Source: a virus. Taken from it: 64,000 nt of DNA. The notes under the pieces were generated by a model. That model saw nothing but the letters and a program-made list of their open reading frames with translations. It was not told where the DNA came from and searched no databases. This document shows positions 9,654 through 59,655 of this stretch, in pieces (the first letter of the stretch is position 1; each line of letters starts with the position of its first letter). The position numbers and the translations under genes were made by a program. The stretch spans positions 114,260 to 178,259 of IMG/VR virus record IMGVR_UViG_3300017987_000006; one strand, given 5' to 3'.

Positions 9654-10460
9654 GTGTCCCGGGACTACGAAGCTGAGCTCCGGGAGGTCCTGGAAAAGAC
9701 GGGTCAGTCAGCCGGCATCACCAACACGACGGACGAGTCGGCCGAACACGTCGAAACCACGTCTCCGGAGACAGAGCACACGGAGGCGGAGAAGGTTGTT
9801 GTTACGCCCTTCTCCGCCGCCAAGCTCTTTGTGCACCACGACACACATCCTCTGGTCTTGGACATCAAGCTGATGGATCAGTATGGGCTCTCGTGGTTCG
9901 AGTGGGAGCCCACGACGTTGTGGCGAGAGATCATGGACGATTTTCGGACGCCCTCGATCTCGGACCACGTCAAGAGCAAGATCCAAGCCCTACGTACGAC
10001 GCACATCACAGATAAGGCGTTCGCGAAGTGGGAGACGTTCTCCGTCATCACGCAGGCACTGAACAACAACATTCCAGACTTCGAGATCATGCGGAGGCCC
10101 ACCATCTCCCAGCTGTTTGCGGCAGTGGACATGATGACTATGGTTCGCAACGATGTCCCGTTCAGCGAGGAGATCGAGTACTGGTGCGGGGCCGCACTGC
10201 TGGATGCGGGGGTGGTGTGTGCCCCCCAGCCCATCGCTTTCTGCCAAGACGCAATCCTGGAGATTCAGGAAGAATTGGGAGTAGAGGTTGACCCAGCTCC
10301 CGTAAAGGAGAAATATAGACTATTGCTGTCTGTCCCCGCGGAGGAGGTGGAGCTCAGGGAGAACCCGGTGGACATCCAGGTGATGAAGCTGATCATTGCC
10401 AGGGACTACCTTTCTTTGCGTCGCGGCCAGATGAAAGAACAGCTGAGGGCCCTACGATGA
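9654..10460 (+). CDS. Hypothetical phage protein
   Basis: 268 aa, GTG start, within structural operon. Confidence 0.6.
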   Translation: MSRDYEAELREVLEKTGQSAGITNTTDESAEHVETTSPETEHTEAEKVVVTPFSAAKLFVHHDTHPLVLDIKLMDQYGLSWFEWEPTTLWREIMDDFRTPSISDHVKSKIQALRTTHITDKAFAKWETFSVITQALNNNIPDFEIMRRPTISQLFAAVDMMTMVRNDVPFSEEIEYWCGAALLDAGVVCAPQPIAFCQDAILEIQEELGVEVDPAPVKEKYRLLLSVPAEEVELRENPVDIQVMKLIIARDYLSLRRGQMKEQLRALR

Positions 10461-11338
10461 ATGCATACAAGACCCTGGCCTTTGTAGACGAGCTGGAGAA
10501 GCTGGCCCTCGCACCTTCGTTGGTCCAGCGGGCCCTACGGTCTGGTGTCGGCCGTGCTGTCGTCAGCAACGTCCCGAAGGTCTGGGGCTCTGGTTTCGGG
10601 CGCGCGGCAGCGGGAGCCCTGCCTGGGGCGGCCATAGGTGCTGTGGCAGACCCGCAGGACAGTGTTCGGGGGGCAGTCCTGGGCGGTCTTGCTGGAGCTG
10701 GAGCTGGCTATGCATCACCCCTGCTCACGGCTGGGGGTCGCGCTCGTGCTAGAGAGGCCCTGAAGCAGTGGGGCAGGGAACAGAAGCACTCCTTCGTTGG
10801 TGGTGAACTCCCCATCAAAAAAAGCATGAAGCCGGAAGAAATCGCGAAACTTCGATCTGCGGAGAAGGCCGGGCTGACTAGTCTGCCGGGCGTAGTCAAG
10901 GGGATGGCAAAGAGGCCGCTACAGACGATGAAGGCTGGTTGGCAACACGCTGGAGGTCTGGGCAAGGCTATGATCGTGGGGGATGTGGCGCTGCAGGCTC
11001 CGGGCCTTGTAGACCCAACCACCCCAGAAGGAACGGGGGAGAAGGCCCTGCGGATGCTCGGAGGGACAGCAGGATTTCTTGCCGGAGGAAAGCTGCCGAT
11101 GTTGGCTAGCCTGGCCCCCATGGCCGGGCTGGCGTACCTCGGCGGGAAGGCTGGTCGCGGGATCGATGTGTTGACAGGCGAGAGAGCAAAGAAAAAGAAG
11201 ATGATGACTGCGGCGCAGCAGGCCGAAGCCGACAAGTTTTTGCGGGTCAGGCCTACTACTGCTCTCGCTCAGCGGGAGGCGCGGAAACTCGTCCCGGCCG
11301 GGTACATCCCGGCTGGGTACGGACCGGGGGTTGTCTGA
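10457..11338 (+). CDS. Putative internal virion protein (AFVDELEKLA motif, glycine zippers)
   Basis: N-terminal LAFVDELEKLA; GAxxGAxxG hydrophobic repeats; basic. Confidence 0.55.
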   Translation: MNAYKTLAFVDELEKLALAPSLVQRALRSGVGRAVVSNVPKVWGSGFGRAAAGALPGAAIGAVADPQDSVRGAVLGGLAGAGAGYASPLLTAGGRARAREALKQWGREQKHSFVGGELPIKKSMKPEEIAKLRSAEKAGLTSLPGVVKGMAKRPLQTMKAGWQHAGGLGKAMIVGDVALQAPGLVDPTTPEGTGEKALRMLGGTAGFLAGGKLPMLASLAPMAGLAYLGGKAGRGIDVLTGERAKKKKMMTAAQQAEADKFLRVRPTTALAQREARKLVPAGYIPAGYGPGVV

Positions 11339-29026: not shown

Positions 29027-29032
29027 AAAGAC

Positions 29033-29041
29033 CTTATACCG
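29033..29041 (-). promoter_or_regulatory. GGTATAAG-class promoter motif
   Basis: CGGTATAAG pointing into the 28.7-29.0 kb intergenic region. Confidence 0.65.
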
Positions 29042-45640: not shown

Positions 45641-46543
45641 ATGCTCAACGTCGAGTTCCAGAACCTCCTCGTCCGGTCCTTCACATTGGACTGGCTCGAG
45701 CTAAGCTGGGAGATCAAGAACACCACCCTCGATCCCCACGACTTCGATTGGTCCGTCGAGCGTAGTGAGTCTCCGCTCGGGCCGTGGGACCCACTCACGG
45801 ACGCCTTCCAAGACCGGTACCAGTTCATAGATAACCGCGTGAACCTGGAGCACCGCTGGCGTCAGTTGTACTACCGCCTCAAGAGCGTCAGGAAGAACGA
45901 CGCGACCGATGTGGTCTACTCGGACGCCGCCACGCTCGCCGCAGATCCCGATTTGATCGCTCAGGAGATCCGCTTACTTGAGCAGACGGTCTTCAAGGAG
46001 TTCATCGGACGGACCTGCTGGTTGTTTCCCGTCCGCACCTTCGGTCAGTACTGTCCACATTGCATGGACGTGGGTAAGGGCGGGACGTATCGAAAGATCA
46101 GATCGAACTGCTTGACGTGTTATGACACGAAGTACGCTCGGGGCTACATGGACCCGATGGAACTGAGTGTTCAATTCGATCCTTCACCGAAGGCTCAGCA
46201 GGCTTTGGGGACCGGCGAGACGCAACAGTCGAATACCACAGCCAGAATGAGTTACTTCCCATTGGTGAAGCCAGGCGATATAATCGTAGAGCCTGAGAAC
46301 AGGCGGTGGAGGGTGGTAAAGGTCTCCTCCACCGAGCGACTGAGAGCGAAGGTCCACCATGAGATGACCCTACATGAGATCTCCAAGGGCGATATCGAGT
46401 TCGCGATGGAGATCGACGTAGGAGAGCTCAGGAACCTCGCACCCAGCCCGGAACGCAACTTCTCCAACCCCCAAAACCTGGAAGCCTTCGAGGACGAGGC
46501 GATAGCAGCGACGTTGGTGGCTTATGGATACGACAACGAGTAG
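45641..46543 (+). CDS. Putative neck/head-closure protein
   Basis: FN3-like N-terminus, CPHC/CLTC pairs, PLVKPGDIIVE..NRRWRV. Confidence 0.55.
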   Translation: MLNVEFQNLLVRSFTLDWLELSWEIKNTTLDPHDFDWSVERSESPLGPWDPLTDAFQDRYQFIDNRVNLEHRWRQLYYRLKSVRKNDATDVVYSDAATLAADPDLIAQEIRLLEQTVFKEFIGRTCWLFPVRTFGQYCPHCMDVGKGGTYRKIRSNCLTCYDTKYARGYMDPMELSVQFDPSPKAQQALGTGETQQSNTTARMSYFPLVKPGDIIVEPENRRWRVVKVSSTERLRAKVHHEMTLHEISKGDIEFAMEIDVGELRNLAPSPERNFSNPQNLEAFEDEAIAATLVAYGYDNE

Positions 46544-46895
46544 GGCGTTCTACGACGAGCTGGAAAAGATTTCCTCTTCCTCTGGTGAAGATCTCCGAGA
46601 CCCAAGCGGGGGGCGCGTTACCAAACAGAAGCTGAAGGGCCTGGTTCGTTATGGTGGGGCCGGAGCGCTGGGGGCTGGTGTTGGTTACGGCGTCGGCAAG
46701 ACGGTGGGCGGCAAGCTGGAAGGCAGTCTCGTTCGCGGCGGGATGCAAATCGGCAAGGCCAGAGCGCTGAGATATGCGCTTCCCATACTGGCTGCTACTG
46801 GTGCAGGATTGGGGTTGGCCCGGATGAGTCTCAGCAACAAGATGAAGAGGAAGATCTTAGAGGATGAGCGTCGCGTCAGCAAGCGTACCCCCTAG
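46524..46895 (+). CDS. Small DELEKI-motif protein with glycine zipper
   Basis: RAFYDELEKISS; GGAGALGAGVGYG. Confidence 0.6.
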   Translation: MDTTTSRAFYDELEKISSSSGEDLRDPSGGRVTKQKLKGLVRYGGAGALGAGVGYGVGKTVGGKLEGSLVRGGMQIGKARALRYALPILAATGAGLGLARMSLSNKMKRKILEDERRVSKRTP

Positions 46896-52894: not shown

Positions 52895-53410
52895 CTAGCG
52901 GCCTTTTTTCGTCCAGTTGAACGCGTCTGTGATGGACGAAGGAAGGTCAGACTGCAGATCAGATGGTCCGGCAGGGTACAAGCCTTCACTATCTTCTTGC
53001 CCACTTTCAACTTCATCAAGTACGGGCAATCGTTCACTGTCGGCTGCCGGCACATGCTCATGGGCTCCTCCGTGGTCTTCGTACTGGATCGTGATGTCAT
53101 CCAGCATCTCCTCATCTGGTGTGGACAAACTGTGGATAGGTTTCCGGCCGGATAAGATCTGTGCAGCCAGCTCTTGGTGCTCTGGTGTTGCCCAAGAGGC
53201 ATGTAAGGCTTCAGCAAGCACGGATAGATCTGTGCCAAAGGTATCGAGGTAAAGCGACCGATGCCGGGATGGTGATTTGTTCACAGACTTATCCCCAGGT
53301 ACATTGACGATGAGTGGAGGGCATGGAGGAAGCGGAGCTCCCACCACTTCATCGTGGCGGAGCGGCGGGTCCTCCACGTCATACGGCGCTGGGTATTTAA
53401 ATCGTGGCAT
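52895..53410 (-). CDS. Hypothetical acidic protein
   Basis: 171 aa, ATG, overlaps RHH gene end. Confidence 0.55.
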   Translation of the reverse strand: MPRFKYPAPYDVEDPPLRHDEVVGAPLPPCPPLIVNVPGDKSVNKSPSRHRSLYLDTFGTDLSVLAEALHASWATPEHQELAAQILSGRKPIHSLSTPDEEMLDDITIQYEDHGGAHEHVPAADSERLPVLDEVESGQEDSEGLYPAGPSDLQSDLPSSITDAFNWTKKGR

Positions 53411-53588
53411 GCCAAACCCTCGCGAGCTCTTCTTCGTAGTCCATTTGTCGCTGGATCAGGGCGCGGATGATGTCCGAGCACCCAATGTTTTCCCGAAACT
53501 TTTGAGACATCATATTACACTTCTTGTAGAGGAACTCACGTTGTTCTTTCCGCATGCGGACAGTGATCGTACAAACCTTGTTCTTCAT
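53397..53588 (-). CDS. Ribbon-helix-helix (CopG/Arc-like) DNA-binding protein
   Basis: TITVRMRKEQREFL...CSDIIRALI; ATG 53588 with GAGG. Confidence 0.7.
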   Translation of the reverse strand: MKNKVCTITVRMRKEQREFLYKKCNMMSQKFRENIGCSDIIRALIQRQMDYEEELARVWHATI

Positions 53589-53610
53589 GTAGATTTCCTC
53601 GTTCACAGCT

Positions 53611-53715
53611 AAAAAGTGATCGGGGAGGTTGCCCAGAAAGGAGATTGATCCCCGATCACTAACTTCCGCAGGGGGGCCGTGCTTGGGGGGGAGCAAGCAG
53701 GCCCACTGCTTCCGT
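53611..53715 (-). ncRNA. Candidate small RNA or attenuator leader
   Basis: Promoter motif 53723-53731; two hairpins, the second a perfect 12-bp stem AGTGATCGGGGA/TCCCCGATCACT followed by U tract. Confidence 0.45.
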
Positions 53716-53757
53716 CACCTTTCTTATACCATAACGATCGCCGGTTTTTAAGGTTCG

Positions 53758-53786
53758 TTGACCGCTTCCAAACAGCGCGTTATGCT
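53758..53786 (+). promoter_or_regulatory. Sigma70-like promoter
   Basis: TTGACC-17 nt-TATGCT upstream of lipoprotein gene. Confidence 0.65.
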
Positions 53787-53828
53787 CCGTCAACAACGCA
53801 GAAAAGGCACGTTGAAAGGAGCCAACAA

Positions 53829-54398
53829 ATGAAACGCTTTTTGATCACGATGATGGTGGGCGTCTGTCTGGGGATGATGCTCCCCGGCTTGACGGCTTGC
53901 CCAAACCCAGAGACCGGAAAGATCGATCCATACCTCACAGCACGAACCATCATCCTACAAGCAAACACAGCTCTCGGACTCGCAGACGGAATCTTCGGCC
54001 AGTGGTACCTGGGCAAGATGCTCACCGACCAAGACATCGCGAACAAAACAAAATTGATCTATGAGAAAACCAAAACCGGGGTGGCCAACGGGCTACAGAT
54101 CGCTTTGAACGGAGTGGCTATCGCTGAGCAGGCCAAGAAAGATCCGAACATCCAGCTACTGATGGGAGAAGCCGACAAAGCCTGGCAGAACCTACGCAAG
54201 TTCTTGACAGATCTACTGGCAAAACAGGAGGACGCGAAGCTGGTCACACTGGCCGACGCACCAAAGAAAGAGCCTCCTACATCTGCACCAGTCACTAAGG
54301 ACGATCCAAAAGCGCCACCGAAAGTGGCTGTCAAAACGTCGGCCATCACGGTGAAGGTCGACGCCCTCAAGAACCTCCCAAAGACCCTCTTGCCATAG
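53829..54398 (+). CDS. Lipoprotein
   Basis: MKRFLITMMVGVCLGMMLPGLTA-C: basic n-region, hydrophobic h-region, LTAC lipobox; AAGGAG RBS. Confidence 0.75.
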   Translation: MKRFLITMMVGVCLGMMLPGLTACPNPETGKIDPYLTARTIILQANTALGLADGIFGQWYLGKMLTDQDIANKTKLIYEKTKTGVANGLQIALNGVAIAEQAKKDPNIQLLMGEADKAWQNLRKFLTDLLAKQEDAKLVTLADAPKKEPPTSAPVTKDDPKAPPKVAVKTSAITVKVDALKNLPKTLLP

Positions 54399-54426
54399 CT
54401 AAGGGGGACTCGATCCCCCCAGTTGA

Positions 54427-54633
54427 TCAACCGACGTACTGACGGTCGATCTCTTCGATCTGTCGATCTATAGTTTCAATCTCATCAACCTCTCGTTCTA
54501 AGTCTCTGATCTCCCTGAGGACGCGCTTCCTTAATCTTTGGCCGATTTCTTGTCCACAATCATCGAGAAAGATTTTGGACTGTTCGATCATTTCTTGTAG
54601 CACAGAAACAACGCCGTTGAGTCTCTCGCTCAT
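54427..54633 (-). CDS. Small coiled-coil hypothetical protein
   Basis: GAGGAG RBS; GGGTATAAG at 54662-54670. Confidence 0.65.
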   Translation of the reverse strand: MSERLNGVVSVLQEMIEQSKIFLDDCGQEIGQRLRKRVLREIRDLEREVDEIETIDRQIEEIDRQYVG

Positions 54634-54789
54634 TTAGATCTCCTCTCTGGTTTGTACAATTCTTATACCCAGAAGAGGGATCAATTTCAGTGAGCTAAGA
54701 AAGGCCCCCGCAACGGTGTGCCTGCTCCGCGGCAGGGGCCTTAGAGAATCAAAGGTACCAACTCTAATCCTCCAAAGCCCTTATACCGC

Positions 54790-55320
54790 TTACGTGTCGT
54801 CCTCTTGCATCTGGGCCGGGGGCTGCTGCGCGTTCCTCTTGATTATGGACCAGCTCTTGGGACGCTTGAACGATCTCGGCAAACGCTTGGGAGGCGGAGA
54901 AGCCGTAGGAGGGGCCGGTGCGGGCTCGAGCTTCTCCAGCTTCTTCTCGAACTTCTTCGTCAGTTCCTCGATGGTCCTGGATGTTCCTGAACCAGATGTC
55001 GCCCGGCGGGAGGCAAGAGCGAACCCAATGAAGAGCGCACGCACGCTGTCGGCATCTGCCTTGGCCGCGTTCAGCTCATTGCGAAACCGGAACTCGAGGT
55101 TACCCAGCTGCCTGTTGAAGTGATCTTCGATCTTCCCCAGGTCCCTGTTCAGATCATCCAGCTTCTTGACGAGCTCCTGGTGAGCAGCCCTGGACGCCTT
55201 CTCTGGGGCCTTTGATCGTGTCTCGATCAACGCCGTCACTGAGGCGATCAATGCTGCCAGCCCGCCCAGGAACGATCCAATCTGGACCCACTTTGACTTA
55301 GGTTTTCCGTTGATCGTCAT
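54790..55320 (-). CDS. Membrane-anchored coiled-coil protein
   Basis: ATG 55320 with AGGAGG; TM WVQIGSFLGGLAALIASVTALI, heptads, Pro-rich linker. Confidence 0.65.
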   Translation of the reverse strand: MTINGKPKSKWVQIGSFLGGLAALIASVTALIETRSKAPEKASRAAHQELVKKLDDLNRDLGKIEDHFNRQLGNLEFRFRNELNAAKADADSVRALFIGFALASRRATSGSGTSRTIEELTKKFEKKLEKLEPAPAPPTASPPPKRLPRSFKRPKSWSIIKRNAQQPPAQMQEDDT

Positions 55321-55417
55321 GTAAACCTCCTGAATCCTGAGATTATCGATGATCAACTGGACGATCAACTATTTTTTGGTCAGCCGGAGGGCCAGGCCCC
55401 TATGTTCTGGGAGGCGG

Positions 55418-55520
55418 TTTTGAAAAAGTAGTAACTTTGAAAAAAATCCTGTGTCATATGTATATGTCCGACATATGTATATGTAGATTTAAAAAAAATT
55501 ATTCTTTTTTTCTTAATAGG
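55418..55520. repeat. AT-rich intergenic island with direct repeats
   Basis: CATATGTATATGT x2 (55455-55467, 55472-55484), TTTGAAAAA x2, A/T runs. Confidence 0.75.
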
Positions 55521-55572
55521 GGTTCCCAGACATATGGACCCCACCCCAAAAACGGGGTGGGGGGCATGATCG

Positions 55573-55797
55573 TTATTGATCTACCTCTATCCTTCTCAGG
55601 ACGTGGTAGATCGCATCGAGGTCTTTTCCATTGATCGGCCAGTCTAACTTCCCCAGGAACTCCGCGGCCCGTTCATCGGGTCTGACCTGCAGGGTGCGCT
55701 TCCCAGGTATTTTCAACAGCAGGGTTCCGTCACCCATGTCCTTTACCCAGGCCCCCAGGCGGCGTGCGTTCTGCATGAACTCCTTATTGATGCTCAT
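55573..55797 (-). CDS. Small hypothetical protein
   Basis: AGGAG RBS; CGGTATAAG at 55825-55833; 10-bp hairpin CCCCCACCCC/GGGGTGGGGG downstream. Confidence 0.65.
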   Translation of the reverse strand: MSINKEFMQNARRLGAWVKDMGDGTLLLKIPGKRTLQVRPDERAAEFLGKLDWPINGKDLDAIYHVLRRIEVDQ

Positions 55798-55919
55798 TTG
55801 ATCTCCTTTTTGGGTTGTACTTTTCTTATACCGATTTATGAGGAAATTCGGATCAGATCGTGGTATAGGATCTCTGCTTTCGTTGGGGAATTACCCCCGA
55901 CACAACATAGGAGGAAGAA

Positions 55920-56120
55920 GTGGCCAAGAAGAAGCAGAAAGAGATCCCAGCACTGGTGCGCGTCAGCAGCATGAAGGAGTACATCAAGGGGGCGGCGGAC
56001 GTGAACGTGTCCGGAGAGCTCGTCGAGGCGGTGAACGGGAAGCTGGCAGAGGTGCTTGCGGATGCCGTAGATCGGTGCCTTGGAAACAACCGCAAGACCG
56101 TTCGTCCGGTGGACCTGTAG
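55920..56120 (+). CDS. Bacterial-type histone-fold protein (66 aa)
   Basis: LVRVSSMKEYIK / VNVS / GELVEAVNGKLAEVLADAVDRC / RKTVRPVDL; AGGAGG RBS before GTG. Confidence 0.85.
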   Translation: MAKKKQKEIPALVRVSSMKEYIKGAADVNVSGELVEAVNGKLAEVLADAVDRCLGNNRKTVRPVDL

Positions 56121-56161
56121 GGCCCTTGCTAACCGGGGTCTGCCCGGGGTACACTCGGTCC

Positions 56162-56464
56162 ATGGATTTAGTAACCATCACCTCTATGCTCGATGAGCTG
56201 GAGAAGATTGCTATCTCTGGCCAGGTGCCCCGGGCACCCAAAGCGCCCAAGACTTCAGCACCACCTCCCCCGCCTGCTGCCCGCATGGCTCCCACGAAGA
56301 TGCCAAACCCGCCGTCGTTTGCTCCTCCAGCTCTTCCGCACTCCGGCGTTCCGGGGCAGCGGCATAGCGCGCTGGCGACGCAGAACACCCTCGGGAAACG
56401 TCTTCCACCAATCGATCCACGCGCGGCCGCGACGATGGTGAGGTATAAGGCCCCGGTTTACTAG
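56162..56464 (+). CDS. Small DELEKI-motif, Pro-rich protein
   Basis: MDLVTITSMLDELEKIA. Confidence 0.6.
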   Translation: MDLVTITSMLDELEKIAISGQVPRAPKAPKTSAPPPPPAARMAPTKMPNPPSFAPPALPHSGVPGQRHSALATQNTLGKRLPPIDPRAAATMVRYKAPVY

Positions 56465-56479
56465 GCCCAGGAGAACAAC

Positions 56480-57067
56480 ATGAAACCGCTATTCATCGTC
56501 CTGGAAGGGACAGATGGCGCTGGGAGCACGACCGCGTCGAAGCTCCTGGTCCAGACTTTGAACGACAAAGGCATCGAGTCCGTGTGGACAAAGGAGCCCT
56601 CAGACGGAACGATCGGAAGACACATCAGGAGAATCTTGAAGGGCGAGGAGATCGCAGATGAGGCGTCGATGTTTCCCATGTTCATGGCAGACCGCCACGA
56701 CCACATCGGAAATTTCATCCGCCCGGAGCTGGAACAGGGCAACACGGTGGTGTGTGATCGGTATGCCTACAGCACGTGGGTTTACCAGCAGGACAACTAC
56801 GGGATGGATGTGATTGAATTGATGCAGCGTCGCTGCCTACCGCCAAACTACACCTTCGTTCTGGAGTGTCCGGTGGAGGAGTGCATGAGGCGCATGGAGG
56901 GAAGGGACGTGATCGAGCGTTACGAGATCGAGGAGAAGCAACGGGAGTATGCCAAGCGCTACAAGCGTGTTCCTCCCATCGGATCTGAGCAGATCATTCA
57001 CCTGGACAGCTACGACTTGAACCCAGCTCAAATCGTGGACAAGATCCGCCGGGAGATCGGCTTGTGA
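56480..57067 (+). CDS. tmk: Thymidylate kinase
   Basis: VLEGTDGAGSTT P-loop, TKEP, FMADR, CDRYAYS motifs. Confidence 0.9.
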   Translation: MKPLFIVLEGTDGAGSTTASKLLVQTLNDKGIESVWTKEPSDGTIGRHIRRILKGEEIADEASMFPMFMADRHDHIGNFIRPELEQGNTVVCDRYAYSTWVYQQDNYGMDVIELMQRRCLPPNYTFVLECPVEECMRRMEGRDVIERYEIEEKQREYAKRYKRVPPIGSEQIIHLDSYDLNPAQIVDKIRREIGL

Positions 57068-57531
57068 GGGTCGGACTCATCGGGTGCGGCAAGGAGAAAT
57101 TAGATCACGCTGCACCCGCCAAGGACCTCTACGTTGGATCGTTCTTCAAGCTTTGCAAGCAGTGGATCTCCAAACCTGGTCGGGTAGACGAGTGGGCGAT
57201 CTTGAGCGCCAAGTATGGTCTGGTCCTGCCTGAGCAGGCCATCGAGCCGTACGATTGCACGCTCAACGGCGGGATGTACGCTGATTATAAAGCCCGGCAG
57301 TCGTGGGCGATCAGAACGAGCGGGGAGATAGTCAAGAGGTGGTGCGCGCAGAATACCGTGTTCATGATCTTGGCGGGGGCGAACTACCGCATGGCCGTGG
57401 AGTGGGTGCCGATGGTGGAGGATGTGATCCGGTGTTGGACCGACTGGAGGAGAGAGTCCGGCATGAGGAGGCCGCAGATGAGCATCGGCGTGATCAAGAA
57501 GTACCTCAAGAACGATGAGGGGTACTACTGA
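57064..57531 (+). CDS. DUF6884-like protein
   Basis: IGCGKEK..APAKDLY.GSFF, ILSAKYGLV, PYDCTL. Confidence 0.65.
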   Translation: MRVGLIGCGKEKLDHAAPAKDLYVGSFFKLCKQWISKPGRVDEWAILSAKYGLVLPEQAIEPYDCTLNGGMYADYKARQSWAIRTSGEIVKRWCAQNTVFMILAGANYRMAVEWVPMVEDVIRCWTDWRRESGMRRPQMSIGVIKKYLKNDEGYY

Positions 57532-58016
57532 TGGGACACGGGATACGACGCCAGCGTTGGCAGGTGCTGCCCAAGTCCGGTGCCCGAATTTGCTGCGTTC
57601 AGATCAACGATCACCAGTTCAACGACCAGGACTGGTGGAGAGAGTCTCTGCTTCTGTGGCAGGAGATCCCAGATCACTTGAGGGCGTTTAAGAAGAAGGA
57701 GTGGGATTTTGTGCTTGTGGTGCCGCTCAGTTCTGTACGAGACTGCTGGTGCGGCAACGACGGGATGCAGGCTTGGAGGTTGAAGAGGAACGGGTATGTC
57801 GTTCCAGATCGATGCCGACAGGAGGGCGGATGCCCAGAGATGTGGAACACCGAGGCGGACGTGTCCAGGAAAAAGGAACTGGAGATATCCAATCTGGAGG
57901 AGATCGAAGAATACGTGGTTCTAGATTACGGAAGAGACGTTCACAAATCCGCCTTCCCGGAGGCAAGATCCCAAAATCTACTTCCGACTTCTTGTCCGCC
58001 ATTAAGACGGCAGTGA
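57531..58016 (+). CDS. Hypothetical protein
   Basis: Start coupled to upstream stop; Trp/Cys-rich. Confidence 0.45.
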   Translation: MGHGIRRQRWQVLPKSGARICCVQINDHQFNDQDWWRESLLLWQEIPDHLRAFKKKEWDFVLVVPLSSVRDCWCGNDGMQAWRLKRNGYVVPDRCRQEGGCPEMWNTEADVSRKKELEISNLEEIEEYVVLDYGRDVHKSAFPEARSQNLLPTSCPPLRRQ

Positions 58017-58147
58017 ACACGTACAACAGGGGCCTGGAGCAGCTAAAAGGAGACAGCATGTTCGATCTTGAGCACCAGATAGATCTGGCGCGGAGCTGCG
58101 TGTTCGAGATCGATGAGGTGCTGTCCCGGTGGAGGATTTGGCGAAAG

Positions 58148-58510
58148 CTAGTACGTGATGTACAATTCAATCGATGAGCGGATAATCCTGATCAACTCAT
58201 TGCGACACATGGGCGCGCGTTTCCTTAGTATCTGATCTACTTTCTTGTCGGTCGCACATAGGTAGATGCCCGGCTCCTCGCGTGTTCTCCAGAAGTAGGA
58301 CAGGGAGATCCCGCCATGGTACTGGTCTGGTCCGTCTACGATTACGATTACCCTCCCGAACTTCTTGCGGTACCAGGCCGCCGCGATGAAGACTTCCCCG
58401 CCCGTGTTGATTTCACAGGCCAGTGTTGGCCAGGGCCCGTGACAGGTGTGCAGCCAGTTCAAACGCCCGCCTCTTGGAACGCCGTTAATCTCCTTGATCG
58501 TCGTTGGCAT
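58148..58510 (-). CDS. Hypothetical protein
   Basis: ATG 58510 overlapping upstream gene end. Confidence 0.45.
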   Translation of the reverse strand: MPTTIKEINGVPRGGRLNWLHTCHGPWPTLACEINTGGEVFIAAAWYRKKFGRVIVIVDGPDQYHGGISLSYFWRTREEPGIYLCATDKKVDQILRKRAPMCRNELIRIIRSSIELYITY

Positions 58511-58799
58511 TGAGGTGCTCCTCGATGGCGTTCTTCTCTTCGTCCGTCGCCGCCAAAAGCTCGGCGAGCTTGAGTATGCAGGCGTGGTCACCAGCAGCAG
58601 CGCCTTTGGCGATCTCTGCGGCGATCATGGACTGCGCCTCCCAGGCACGAATATCAGATCTGGAGAAGATCCCTTTTTGGTGGAGTAGGTTGATGAGCGA
58701 GACGATCTGGCCGGAGACGATGGCACCCTTTTCTAGTTCGCGTTGCTCTTCGGCTTCCATGATCTCTTGGAAGTCCTGTCTGAGCTGATCATTTTCCAC
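58485..58799 (-). CDS. Hypothetical protein (104 aa)
   Basis: GTG 58799 with AAGGAG; CGGTATAAG at 58822-58830. Confidence 0.6.
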   Translation of the reverse strand: MENDQLRQDFQEIMEAEEQRELEKGAIVSGQIVSLINLLHQKGIFSRSDIRAWEAQSMIAAEIAKGAAAGDHACILKLAELLAATDEEKNAIEEHLNANDDQGD

Positions 58800-58914
58800 G
58801 TAAACTCCTTTCGTTGAATAGCTTATACCGAATTCTCGACGATTTGTGTTGACAATAACTCTGAGTGTGATCTTCTTCGAAAGATCGCTCAAGCCAAAAA
58901 ACGGAGGTAACAGA

Positions 58915-59406
58915 ATGAATATCAAACTGACAAAGATCGAGATGAAGATTCTTGCCGCCCTGAAGGGCGGGAAGAACAACGCCCGCGGCATTTCCGCCCT
59001 CGTCTTCGGCAAGAAGGAGGAGAATATCAAGCAGGGAGAGGTAAGGGACGTGCGCAACGGCCTGCGGAAGATCGTCAACCGACGGCTGGTGGACAATGCG
59101 GAGCGGGGTATGTACGCGCTGACCGCGACCGGAAAGAAAGCCGCCAAGTCCGGAGCCGGCGTTGTCGAGGCTATCAGTAAGACCACCAAGTCCAAGTCCA
59201 AGAAGACCACCAAGTCCAAGTCCAAGGCTAAGGCCAAGACCAAGACCGCCAAGAAGGCCAAGACCGCCATCGAGGTGGTGGACAAGACCACCAGCAAGCC
59301 TGCAGCCAAGAAGGCGAATGGTAACGGGAACGGGACCGCCCGCAAGGGGATGCCGACCTTCAAGCGGCGCAACCTCTCCAAGCCCTACACGAGGCAGGGG
59401 CAGTAG
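58915..59406 (+). CDS. Winged-helix protein with Lys/Ala/Ser/Thr-rich tail (linker histone H1-like architecture)
   Basis: LTKIEMKILAAL...VRNGLRKIVNRRLV..AERGMYALT wHTH pattern, then KTTKSKSK x2, KAKAKTKTAKKAK; GGAGG RBS; TTGACA at 58849. Confidence 0.7.
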   Translation: MNIKLTKIEMKILAALKGGKNNARGISALVFGKKEENIKQGEVRDVRNGLRKIVNRRLVDNAERGMYALTATGKKAAKSGAGVVEAISKTTKSKSKKTTKSKSKAKAKTKTAKKAKTAIEVVDKTTSKPAAKKANGNGNGTARKGMPTFKRRNLSKPYTRQGQ

Positions 59407-59655
59407 ATGCCGGACTGCATCGGTCGGGCCGCCAGGGACTTCTTCCAGCTGTCGATCTACGATGCGCAGAACGATCACGTGGTGACGCTGCAGCTGAAGC
59501 GACACAGCGGAATGACCCCTGGAGATCTGGCCCAGCTCCAAAACTTCCTGTGGTGTCAGATCGGGCAGGCCATTCGAGATGATGCAGATCTCAGGCGCAG
59601 GCTGGAGATCGGTGGAGTTCGGGTGCTGTTGAACGCCCCGGAACGTGGTAACTAG
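59407..59655 (+). CDS. Hypothetical protein
   Basis: 82 aa, abuts upstream stop. Confidence 0.5.
   Translation: MPDCIGRAARDFFQLSIYDAQNDHVVTLQLKRHSGMTPGDLAQLQNFLWCQIGQAIRDDADLRRRLEIGGVRVLLNAPERGN

Follow-up and report, generated by a model that had tools for sequence, protein, structure and literature searches.

Genome and locus

The locus described here lies in an uncultured marine phage represented by the IMG/VR record IMGVR_UViG_3300017987_000006, which is complete (178,259 bp, with terminal repeats). The window that we analysed is the final 64 kb of this record (bases 114260-178259), and positions are those of the window unless marked as genome positions. Because the phage encodes a large terminase, a major head protein, a 1241-amino-acid (aa) tail sheath and a tail tube, it is a large, myovirus-like phage; its closest cultured terminase, that of Salmonella phage Arash, is just 29% identical. 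Near-identical DNA is present in sediment and seawater metagenomes, four public runs of which may have yielded the record itself; the contigs of these four runs are identical across 53300-59500.

An earlier note on this DNA had flagged 6 kb (53397-59406) as a possible phage chromatin toolkit: a core histone-fold protein, an H1-like winged-helix protein with a Lys-rich tail, a ribbon-helix-helix (RHH) protein, an AT-rich repeat island and a DELEKI-tagged protein following the histone. The segment comes just past the tail tube gene and consists of small genes on both strands, after which come genes for thymidylate kinase, a DUF6884 protein, a transglycosylase and RNase HII. Our analysis centres on the histone and asks what its neighbours have to do with it. 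A collinear group of six phages (the window, L003/L004, L005-L007, L008, L136 and L009) serves for comparison. A tblastn search of 50,697 GenBank phage records with the histone and with the winged-helix protein gave zero matches, and a word-indexed protein search returned 3 and 2 matches only.

A histone of the face-to-face type encoded by the phage

The histone gene starts with GTG, with AGGAGG ahead of the start, and its product has no match in Pfam, PHROGs or NCBIfam. A phmmer search against the PDB retrieves HLp of Leptospira (9qt0, E 2.7e-6) and, more weakly, HBb of Bdellovibrio (8cmp, E 0.085). The AlphaFold2 (AF2) model has a mean predicted local distance difference test score (pLDDT) of 85.8 and consists of helix a1 (residues 15-25), a shortened a2 of 22 residues (34-55) and an a3 of three residues (63-65); the chain ends at residue 66, one residue past the clamp aspartate D65. 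Foldseek places HLp first (template modelling score, TM, 0.92 by target; root-mean-square deviation, rmsd, 0.8 A; 39% identity), followed by archaeal HTkC and HBb, and all three are matched with probability 1.00 and TM of 0.8-0.9.

An exhaustive HMMER scan with the histone yields 110 representative clusters at E<=1e-3, comprising singlets of ~65 aa and doublets of ~120 aa. When 45 singlets are aligned, the C-terminal NNRKTVRPxDL stands out as conserved, and this is the RxTxxxxD (RD) clamp; in the window histone it reads R58-K-T60-V-R-P-V-D65, with T60 and D65 invariant and R58 at least 90% conserved among the 45 homologues. The residues that build the HLp tetramer, R49, N53 and R55 (PMC12701072, from which the DNA contacts of HLp are also taken), align with R52, N56 and R58, each conserved in at least 90% of the family. 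The first two of these positions are occupied by Ser and Asp in HBb. We assign the phage protein to the face-to-face (FtF) type, and by sequence and predicted structure it is a genuine FtF-type alpha3-truncated histone. The HLp DNA contacts S14, K17, K21, G29 and T57 correspond to S16, K19, K23, G32 and T60, and the N-terminal tail, MAKKKQKE, follows a family consensus of MAKxKK. Thus the histone fold that the earlier note had seen is borne out; 'core' was a loose word for it, as this is the short alpha3-truncated prokaryotic type and not a nucleosomal core histone.

Two other assignments were considered and rejected. A 'bacterial dimer' histone of the HBb type is ruled out by the presence of R52 and N56 and by the far weaker HBb match, and a 'phage histone' in the sense of Schwab et al. 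2024 by the fact that nothing follows the clamp and that the RxTxxxxD motif is present. The class to which the protein does belong, the FtF-like histones of tailed-phage metagenomes, is already published, in silico only. Bacterial histones have been characterised recently, the HBb and HLp papers dating from 2023-2025; for tailed phages our literature search found histones in sequence surveys only, and no biochemical or infection-biology study. What the present locus offers is a clean complete-genome case of the face-to-face type in a phage. It also adds context to the surveys: no close cellular donor in the sampled genomes, a promoter-like element of its own, a leader-tagged neighbour and an AT-rich palindrome upstream. 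Features of the locus are collected in Table 1.

Table 1. Genes and sequence elements at the histone locus, in order of position (window coordinates unless stated)
Feature	Position	Strand	Evidence
63-aa basic protein, probable ribbon-helix-helix DNA binder	53397..53588	-	strand-helix-helix pattern, homologues, ESM-Atlas
GGTATAAGA, promoter-like element of the RHH gene	53722..53730	-	one of 13 genome sites
AT-rich palindromic island: 13-nt repeat (two copies), 9-nt repeat (two copies), 14-nt inverted repeat	55416..55535		GC 0.27
G+C-rich hairpin flanking the island, just 3' of the 74-aa gene stop	55534..55567		inverted repeat and fold
74-aa gene between island and histone	55573..55797	-	open reading frame, ribosome-binding site, GGTATAAGA element at 55824-55832
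GGTATAGGA, promoter-like element ~50 nt upstream of the histone start	55862..55870	+	motif scan
66-aa FtF-type alpha3-truncated histone with Lys-rich N-tail	55920..56120	+	PDB match, AF2, Foldseek, alignment, tree
100-aa protein: 17-aa leader ending in DELEKIA, then basic Pro/Ala-rich body, isoelectric point 11.7	56162..56464	+	same leader on six proteins of the genome
Thymidylate kinase and DUF6884 genes	56480..57531	+	DUF6884 at 2.8e-27; nucleotide-metabolism block
Winged helix-turn-helix domain, residues 1-88 of a 163-aa protein	58915..59178	+	AF2, Foldseek, VIA-align
Disordered K/A/S/T-rich tail with C-terminal EVVDKT...NG...FKRR motif	59179..59406	+	AF2, composition, alignment
Leader proteins	window 10457-11338, 46524-46895, 56162-56464; genome 60764-61219, 75998-76759, 103055-103585		shared N-terminal leader

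Relatives and descent of the histone

Cellular histones were gathered by a degenerate DNA pattern, so that the sample is biased towards proteins with N[NG]RKTVRPxD. More than 100 cellular alpha3 histones were recovered in this way, from Fibrobacterota, Krumholzibacteriota, Peregrinibacteria, Myxococcota, Planctomycetota, Bdellovibrionota, Iainarchaeota and others, and in the histone domain none of them is more than ~47% identical to the phage protein. In a tree built on 64 columns with this pattern-biased cellular sample, the window histone falls within a phage-only clade of six, with a value of 95 in the Shimodaira-Hasegawa-like approximate likelihood ratio test. Because of this clade and of the absence of any closer cellular protein in the sample, the sequences suggest that the histone has been vertically inherited for long within the phage group and was not captured recently.

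Several observations on other histones were made along the way. In L009 (9887-10165, +), use of an upstream ATG would give the histone a K/E-rich N-terminal extension of ~30 residues and a total of 92 aa, which is towards the upper limit of the tail lengths described in viral FtF histones. The low-GC phage IMGVR_UViG_3300037755_000497 (L010) carries directly 3' of its histone gene another gene (10232-11329, +) for a 365-aa protein with a Lys-rich N-terminus, a zinc-ribbon-like CxxC...CxxC motif and a run of ~200 residues of nearly pure Asp/Glu; so acidic a neighbour is reminiscent of histone chaperones or DNA mimics. Among Myxococcota, tandem alpha3 histone genes ~220 bp apart are found in L029 and L088, metagenome-assembled genomes of Kofleriaceae / Myxococcales.

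A winged-helix protein with a lysine-rich tail

The second protein of interest, whose gene starts at 58915 and not at 58846, is the winged-helix protein with a Lys-rich tail that the earlier note described, and both parts are indeed present. Its N-terminal domain is modelled by AF2 with pLDDT of 81-93 over residues 1-80 as two helices, a recognition helix, a beta-hairpin wing and one more helix. In the tail, which is disordered (pLDDT below 50), 21 of 78 residues are K and the net charge is +23; an exact 24-nt tandem repeat (59179-59226) marks the point where it begins, and the motif at its end is conserved among relatives. Structural neighbours by Foldseek and VIA-align are MarR, PadR, HxlR, RosR, SSV1 F-93, AspA and Sso10a, the best VIA-align score being Z 11.4 to BpsR (80 residues, rmsd 3.2), with Z 10.5 to SSV1 F-93. 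Sequence libraries (Pfam, PHROGs, NCBIfam) give no family support apart from weak, sub-threshold matches to DUF5797 and phrog_11991. At the level of the predicted fold, the winged helix is MarR/PadR-like.

The label 'H1-like' holds for the architecture of this protein, a winged helix joined to a Lys tail as in linker histones H1/H5 (where a long disordered Lys/Ala/Ser/Thr tail likewise follows the domain), but probably not for its ancestry. There is no match to the Pfam Linker_histone model at E<=0.1, and no H1/H5 among the top 50 of the Foldseek or of the VIA-align matches listed; among these matches the domain is nearest to MarR, PadR and SSV1 F-93, and the phage offers no nucleosomes for it to bind. 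The resemblance is one of architecture and probably convergent. H1-like Lys/Ala tails are also carried by Chlamydia Hc1 and Pseudomonas AlgP. A further bacterial case is DdbA of Streptomyces (PMC3643593).

The basic region varies much among relatives. K/A-rich tails, which differ in length, are found on the winged-helix homologues in L003, L005, L008 and L136 (that of L008 carries near-perfect KKAAKK-type repeats), and the L139 homologue is tailed too. The homologue in L009 has no tail, and in L138 (8204-9142, +) a K/A/P-rich region stands N-terminal to the winged helix, in the reverse of the window order. Since L138 has the basic region on the opposite side of the domain, this region appears to be a mobile module. 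Among the phage lineages that we examined the family recurs in six, five of which have the tail, before or after the domain; we found no report of it in the literature. We regard the winged-helix/Lys-tail protein as a second candidate for a phage DNA-condensing protein.

The AT-rich palindromic island

The AT-rich repeat island noticed earlier is present, and it is unique in the genome: its GC content of 0.27 is the lowest of any 120-bp window in the 178 kb, the next being 0.38 and the mean 0.57. It contains two copies of CATATGTATATGT, which also makes a 14-nt inverted repeat, two copies of TTTGAAAAA, runs of A/T and the flanking G+C hairpin; the hairpin is not followed by a T-run on either strand. 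In the relatives the most AT-rich 120 bp of the locus lie at a similar place, 380-467 bp upstream of the histone start in L003, L005, L008 and L009 and 126 bp upstream in L136. These islands are unrelated in sequence, and neither the 13-nt nor the 9-nt repeat occurs in any relative, yet each has long inverted repeats, with DNA fold z-scores from -3.4 (window) to -9.1. As a cis element the island is conserved; it may serve as an origin or as a transcription hub, and its link to the histone is positional only.

Could it be the replication origin of the phage, with a DNA-unwinding element, binding repeats and the RHH protein, the winged helix or the histone as accessory factor? Such a function would fit an AT content far above that of any other spot in the genome, the short direct and inverted repeats of the island, and its place within a region of replication and nucleotide metabolism; palindromes capable of forming cruciforms also persist at the same syntenic spot in five relatives despite sequence divergence. 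However, each repeat has two copies only, no initiator gene was identified beside the island, the cumulative GC skew has no turning point there, and these features would also be expected of a terminator working in both directions, or of a promoter hub, placed between small genes in convergent and tandem arrangement. On balance, we consider an origin possible and rather doubtful. It should be noted that in two public runs the contigs are broken inside the island, between 55519 and 55529, and that those of two other runs continue across it; the AT-rich palindrome has probably disturbed the assembly there, although a physical end would look the same in contigs.

The RHH candidate and a promoter-like element

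The RHH protein of the earlier note has a real gene, which is conserved in the six phages, and a structural lead in its favour, but no sequence match to RHH models. A profile search finds homologues in L003, L005, L008, L136 and L009, and the residue pattern of their alignment fits strand-helix-helix. Pfam, PHROGs, NCBIfam and PDB sequences give no match, save that one member is NikA-like at E 0.05. The ESM-Atlas lead is a CopG/RHH_1 cluster (TM 0.70-0.74) in which 36% of members carry RHH_1. From this structural lead we take the protein to be probably an RHH DNA binder. A short CsLinker motif hit by the alignment in a PDB profile search was judged irrelevant. Small RHH and winged helix-turn-helix proteins are among the commonest phage regulators, so the candidate is an ordinary one among phage proteins.

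A promoter-like element, GGTATA[AG]G[AG], is common to the histone and RHH genes. It has 13 sites in the 178-kb genome, 7 of which fall within 53.7-60.8 kb. The RHH gene, three small minus-strand genes, the histone and the thymidylate kinase operon have it ahead of their starts, usually at a distance of 20-50 nt. Similar elements, GGTATAAG, precede the histone in L003 and L005. The winged-helix gene has no element of this type. These sequences suggest that histone and RHH genes belong to one expression class, which is equally shared with enzymes. A further copy, GGTATAAGG, is located beside the terminase gene (29032-29040, -). A scan for sigma-70 promoters and terminators gave no excess over shuffles, Rfam matches across 53-60 kb were at chance level, and the 74-aa minus-strand gene has no family match in the libraries.

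The leader protein next to the histone

The DELEKI-tagged protein does follow the histone, as had been stated. Its leader, x(4-17)-[FLM]x-DELEK-[IL]-[AS], begins six proteins genome-wide. Pfam, PHROGs and NCBIfam give no match for the protein next to the histone, and the three leader proteins tested against PHROGs have at most a weak match of unknown function. Homologues that carry the leader lie 3' of the histone in L003, L005, L008, L136 and L009, either directly or after one gene of ~110 aa. This intervening gene (N-terminus ...TTTWELH...) is conserved in L003 (10200-10532), L005 (7071-7409) and L008 (10193-10516), and the window does not have it.

In phage T4 the internal proteins IPI-III carry a capsid-targeting sequence that is cleaved after L/I-x-E. 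The leader resembles it in being short, N-terminal and common to otherwise unrelated small proteins, with a candidate protease site (K-I-A) and, here, a basic body. The motif itself is different from that of T4, and its cleavage and packaging are predictions from sequence. By this analogy, virion cargo is a better guess for the leader protein than a chromatin partner.

Gene order and the question of a chromatin toolkit

Histone, winged-helix, RHH and leader genes occur together in all six phages of the group, within a block of ~15 kb that is collinear throughout and includes the tail tube, thymidylate kinase, transglycosylase and RNase HII genes. The thymidylate kinase homologues of L003 and L005, which share 59-67% identity with the window gene, are called as Thymidylate_kin. 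Because the entire block is collinear in the six phages, co-occurrence of the four genes cannot separate function from descent. A gene for a 189-aa protein (53829-54398, +), with a lipoprotein-type signal (…LPGLTAC) and a C-terminal part rich in Lys/Ala/Pro/Thr, is likewise kept in L003, L005, L008 and L136, its orientation flipped in L005.

Outside this clade the parts separate. No winged-helix match was found in the more distant histone records G001, G004 and G005 (92%, 76% and 20% complete) and no RHH match in G001, these being weak negatives, as the searches had no positive control. In G001 the tail tube is 69% identical, and its histone gene is followed by that of a 700-aa helicase, DinG-like by motif reading. 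Conversely, the winged-helix contigs G002 and G003, which are fragments (14% and 33% complete), gave no histone match, again with no positive control, and winged-helix homologues with K/A-rich regions are those of L138 and L139, where the fragment showed no histone. Synteny in relatives, the check that the earlier note had itself proposed, therefore gives two answers: the four genes do stay together in six collinear phages, but the failure to co-occur which it would have held against the toolkit is what the weak negatives point to beyond them.

Might the histone, the linker-like winged-helix/Lys-tail protein and the basic leader protein nevertheless coat the phage DNA jointly, for compaction or for protection against restriction or CRISPR nucleases, perhaps nucleated at the AT island? 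Six phages, the shared proteins of which have just 36-84% identity, keep the four genes and an AT-rich palindromic island inside a few kb, and histone and leader genes are adjacent or one gene apart in all six. All these proteins are strongly basic, and histone and RHH genes have the promoter-like element in common. Yet unrelated enzymes are also collinear, so the retention of four genes is unspecific; the winged helix was not matched in three distant histone phages, nor the RHH protein in one of them, and there are winged-helix/Lys-tail homologues with no histone close by. By its predicted fold the winged helix looks MarR/PadR-like rather than H1-like, its tail is missing in L009 and its gene has no copy of the shared promoter-like motif. 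Also, proteins with histone-methylation domains are reported not to co-occur with viral FtF histones (PMC13681535). In our view, such joint coating is improbable.

What remains of the toolkit is its parts, which are real and in several cases plausibly DNA-binding; their proximity reflects shared ancestry, and a module beyond synteny is not supported; the toolkit as a whole has a low probability. It is more likely that the genes are simply syntenic neighbours and the locus a well-documented case of a known class. A fuller scheme of minimal phage chromatin, in which an FtF tetramer would wrap DNA, an H1-like Lys tail would neutralise and bridge the linker, the leader protein would enter the capsid together with the genome and the AT palindrome would act as nucleation site or origin, is very improbable. 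If true, it would be a convergent arrangement of core and linker histone in a bacterial virus.

Proposed function of the histone

The best explanation overall, to which we give a probability of about 0.62, is that the region is a run of small genes, each with a promoter to itself, and of nucleotide-metabolism genes, that the histone is the phage's own nucleoid-associated protein and that its neighbours are inherited by gene order, with no demonstrated module. By analogy with Leptospira HLp, the 66-aa protein would form a histone-fold dimer, two of which would join by way of R52/N56/R58 to give a rigid tetramer. This is predicted to bind DNA without sequence preference via S16, K19, K23, G32, K59/T60 and the Lys-rich N-tail, and might either wrap ~60 bp or bridge two duplexes. 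It may act on replicating phage DNA, organising or compacting it for replication, transcription or packaging, much as the HU-like protein TF1 does for SPO1; no HU/IHF gene was found in the phage genome. Phage DNA as the target is proposed tentatively, on analogy, and at somewhat less than even odds; the host nucleoid is a rather unlikely target, and shielding of DNA from nucleases an improbable role. The winged-helix/Lys-tail, probable RHH and Pro/Ala-rich leader proteins would then be separate small proteins of DNA-binding or virion-cargo type. Packaging of the histone itself in the virion was set aside by inference: it has no leader, and wrapped DNA would be ill-suited to the packing density of a capsid.

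If the host were the target, the histone could be an early takeover weapon that compacts the host nucleoid and stops transcription and replication of the host, much like nucleoid disruption of the T4 Ndd type. We consider this unlikely. The gene is small, has its own promoter-like element and lies in a block of small non-structural genes, and HLp binds DNA largely without sequence preference (PMC12701072), so that host DNA would be bound too. By the same token, non-specific binding would strike phage DNA equally, and the gene is found among genes of nucleotide metabolism and replication type rather than in a typical host-shut-off cluster.

Several points weigh against a nucleoid-associated protein of the phage whose neighbours are neighbours by descent only. 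The oligomeric state and DNA binding of the histone are predicted from sequence and model, and the choice of phage over host DNA as its target is one of analogy. The searches that found no partner genes in other phage records had no positive control, and three of these records are fragments (G002 14%, G003 33%, G005 20%). All six collinear phages keep all four genes, including L009, where thymidylate kinase is just 36% identical, and a real module would look alike. Finally, the AT island stands beside the histone in all five relatives examined, so that a specific link is possible.

Should the histone or the winged-helix/Lys-tail protein coat phage DNA, this would bear on how large phages without a protein nucleus order or shield their DNA. 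Three new facts are of most use: the conserved AT-rich palindrome by the histone gene, the recurrent winged-helix/Lys-tail family and the leader-tagged neighbour.

Comparison with known histone systems

Phage SPO1 encodes TF1, an abundant HU-type protein that prefers hydroxymethyluracil DNA. The present phage is similar in supplying an architectural DNA-binding protein of its own; the fold is that of HU in SPO1 and of a histone here, and the preference for hydroxymethyluracil DNA is a feature of TF1. Compared with the 'phage histones' of Schwab et al. 2024 (A0A2E7QIQ9 type; PMC11390915), the window histone shares the alpha3-type fold and the origin in tailed-phage metagenomes. Those proteins, however, carry a C-terminal tetramerisation helix and have no RxTxxxD, while the window histone is the opposite in both respects. 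HBb (Bd0055) of Bdellovibrio has the same alpha3-truncated fold and RKTxxxxD motif but bends DNA as a dimer, with S and D where the phage histone has R52 and N56.

The class of the window histone goes by the name VFFHFP (hLife 2025, PMC13681535), viral FtF-like histones with Lys-rich N-tails of 5-40 residues. The window histone resembles it in its short FtF-like fold, its origin in tailed-phage metagenomes and its Lys-rich N-tail (MAKKKQKE in the window, ~30 residues in L009); the tetramers of the class are themselves predicted. The survey did not cover gene context, the AT island or the winged-helix and leader neighbours, which the present locus adds.

The best-matching counterpart is HLp of Leptospira perolatii (PDB 9QT0/9QT1), an FtF alpha3 histone whose tetramer wraps ~60 bp (PMC12701072). 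Unlike HLp, the window histone is phage-encoded and has a Lys-rich N-tail, K15 and T27 of HLp are replaced by S17 and V30, and its tetramer and wrapping are predicted by analogy. With 39% identity and an rmsd of 0.8 A, the phage histone keeps the RD clamp of HLp, the residues that build its tetramer and those with which it contacts DNA (S14, K17, K21, G29 and T57 of HLp).

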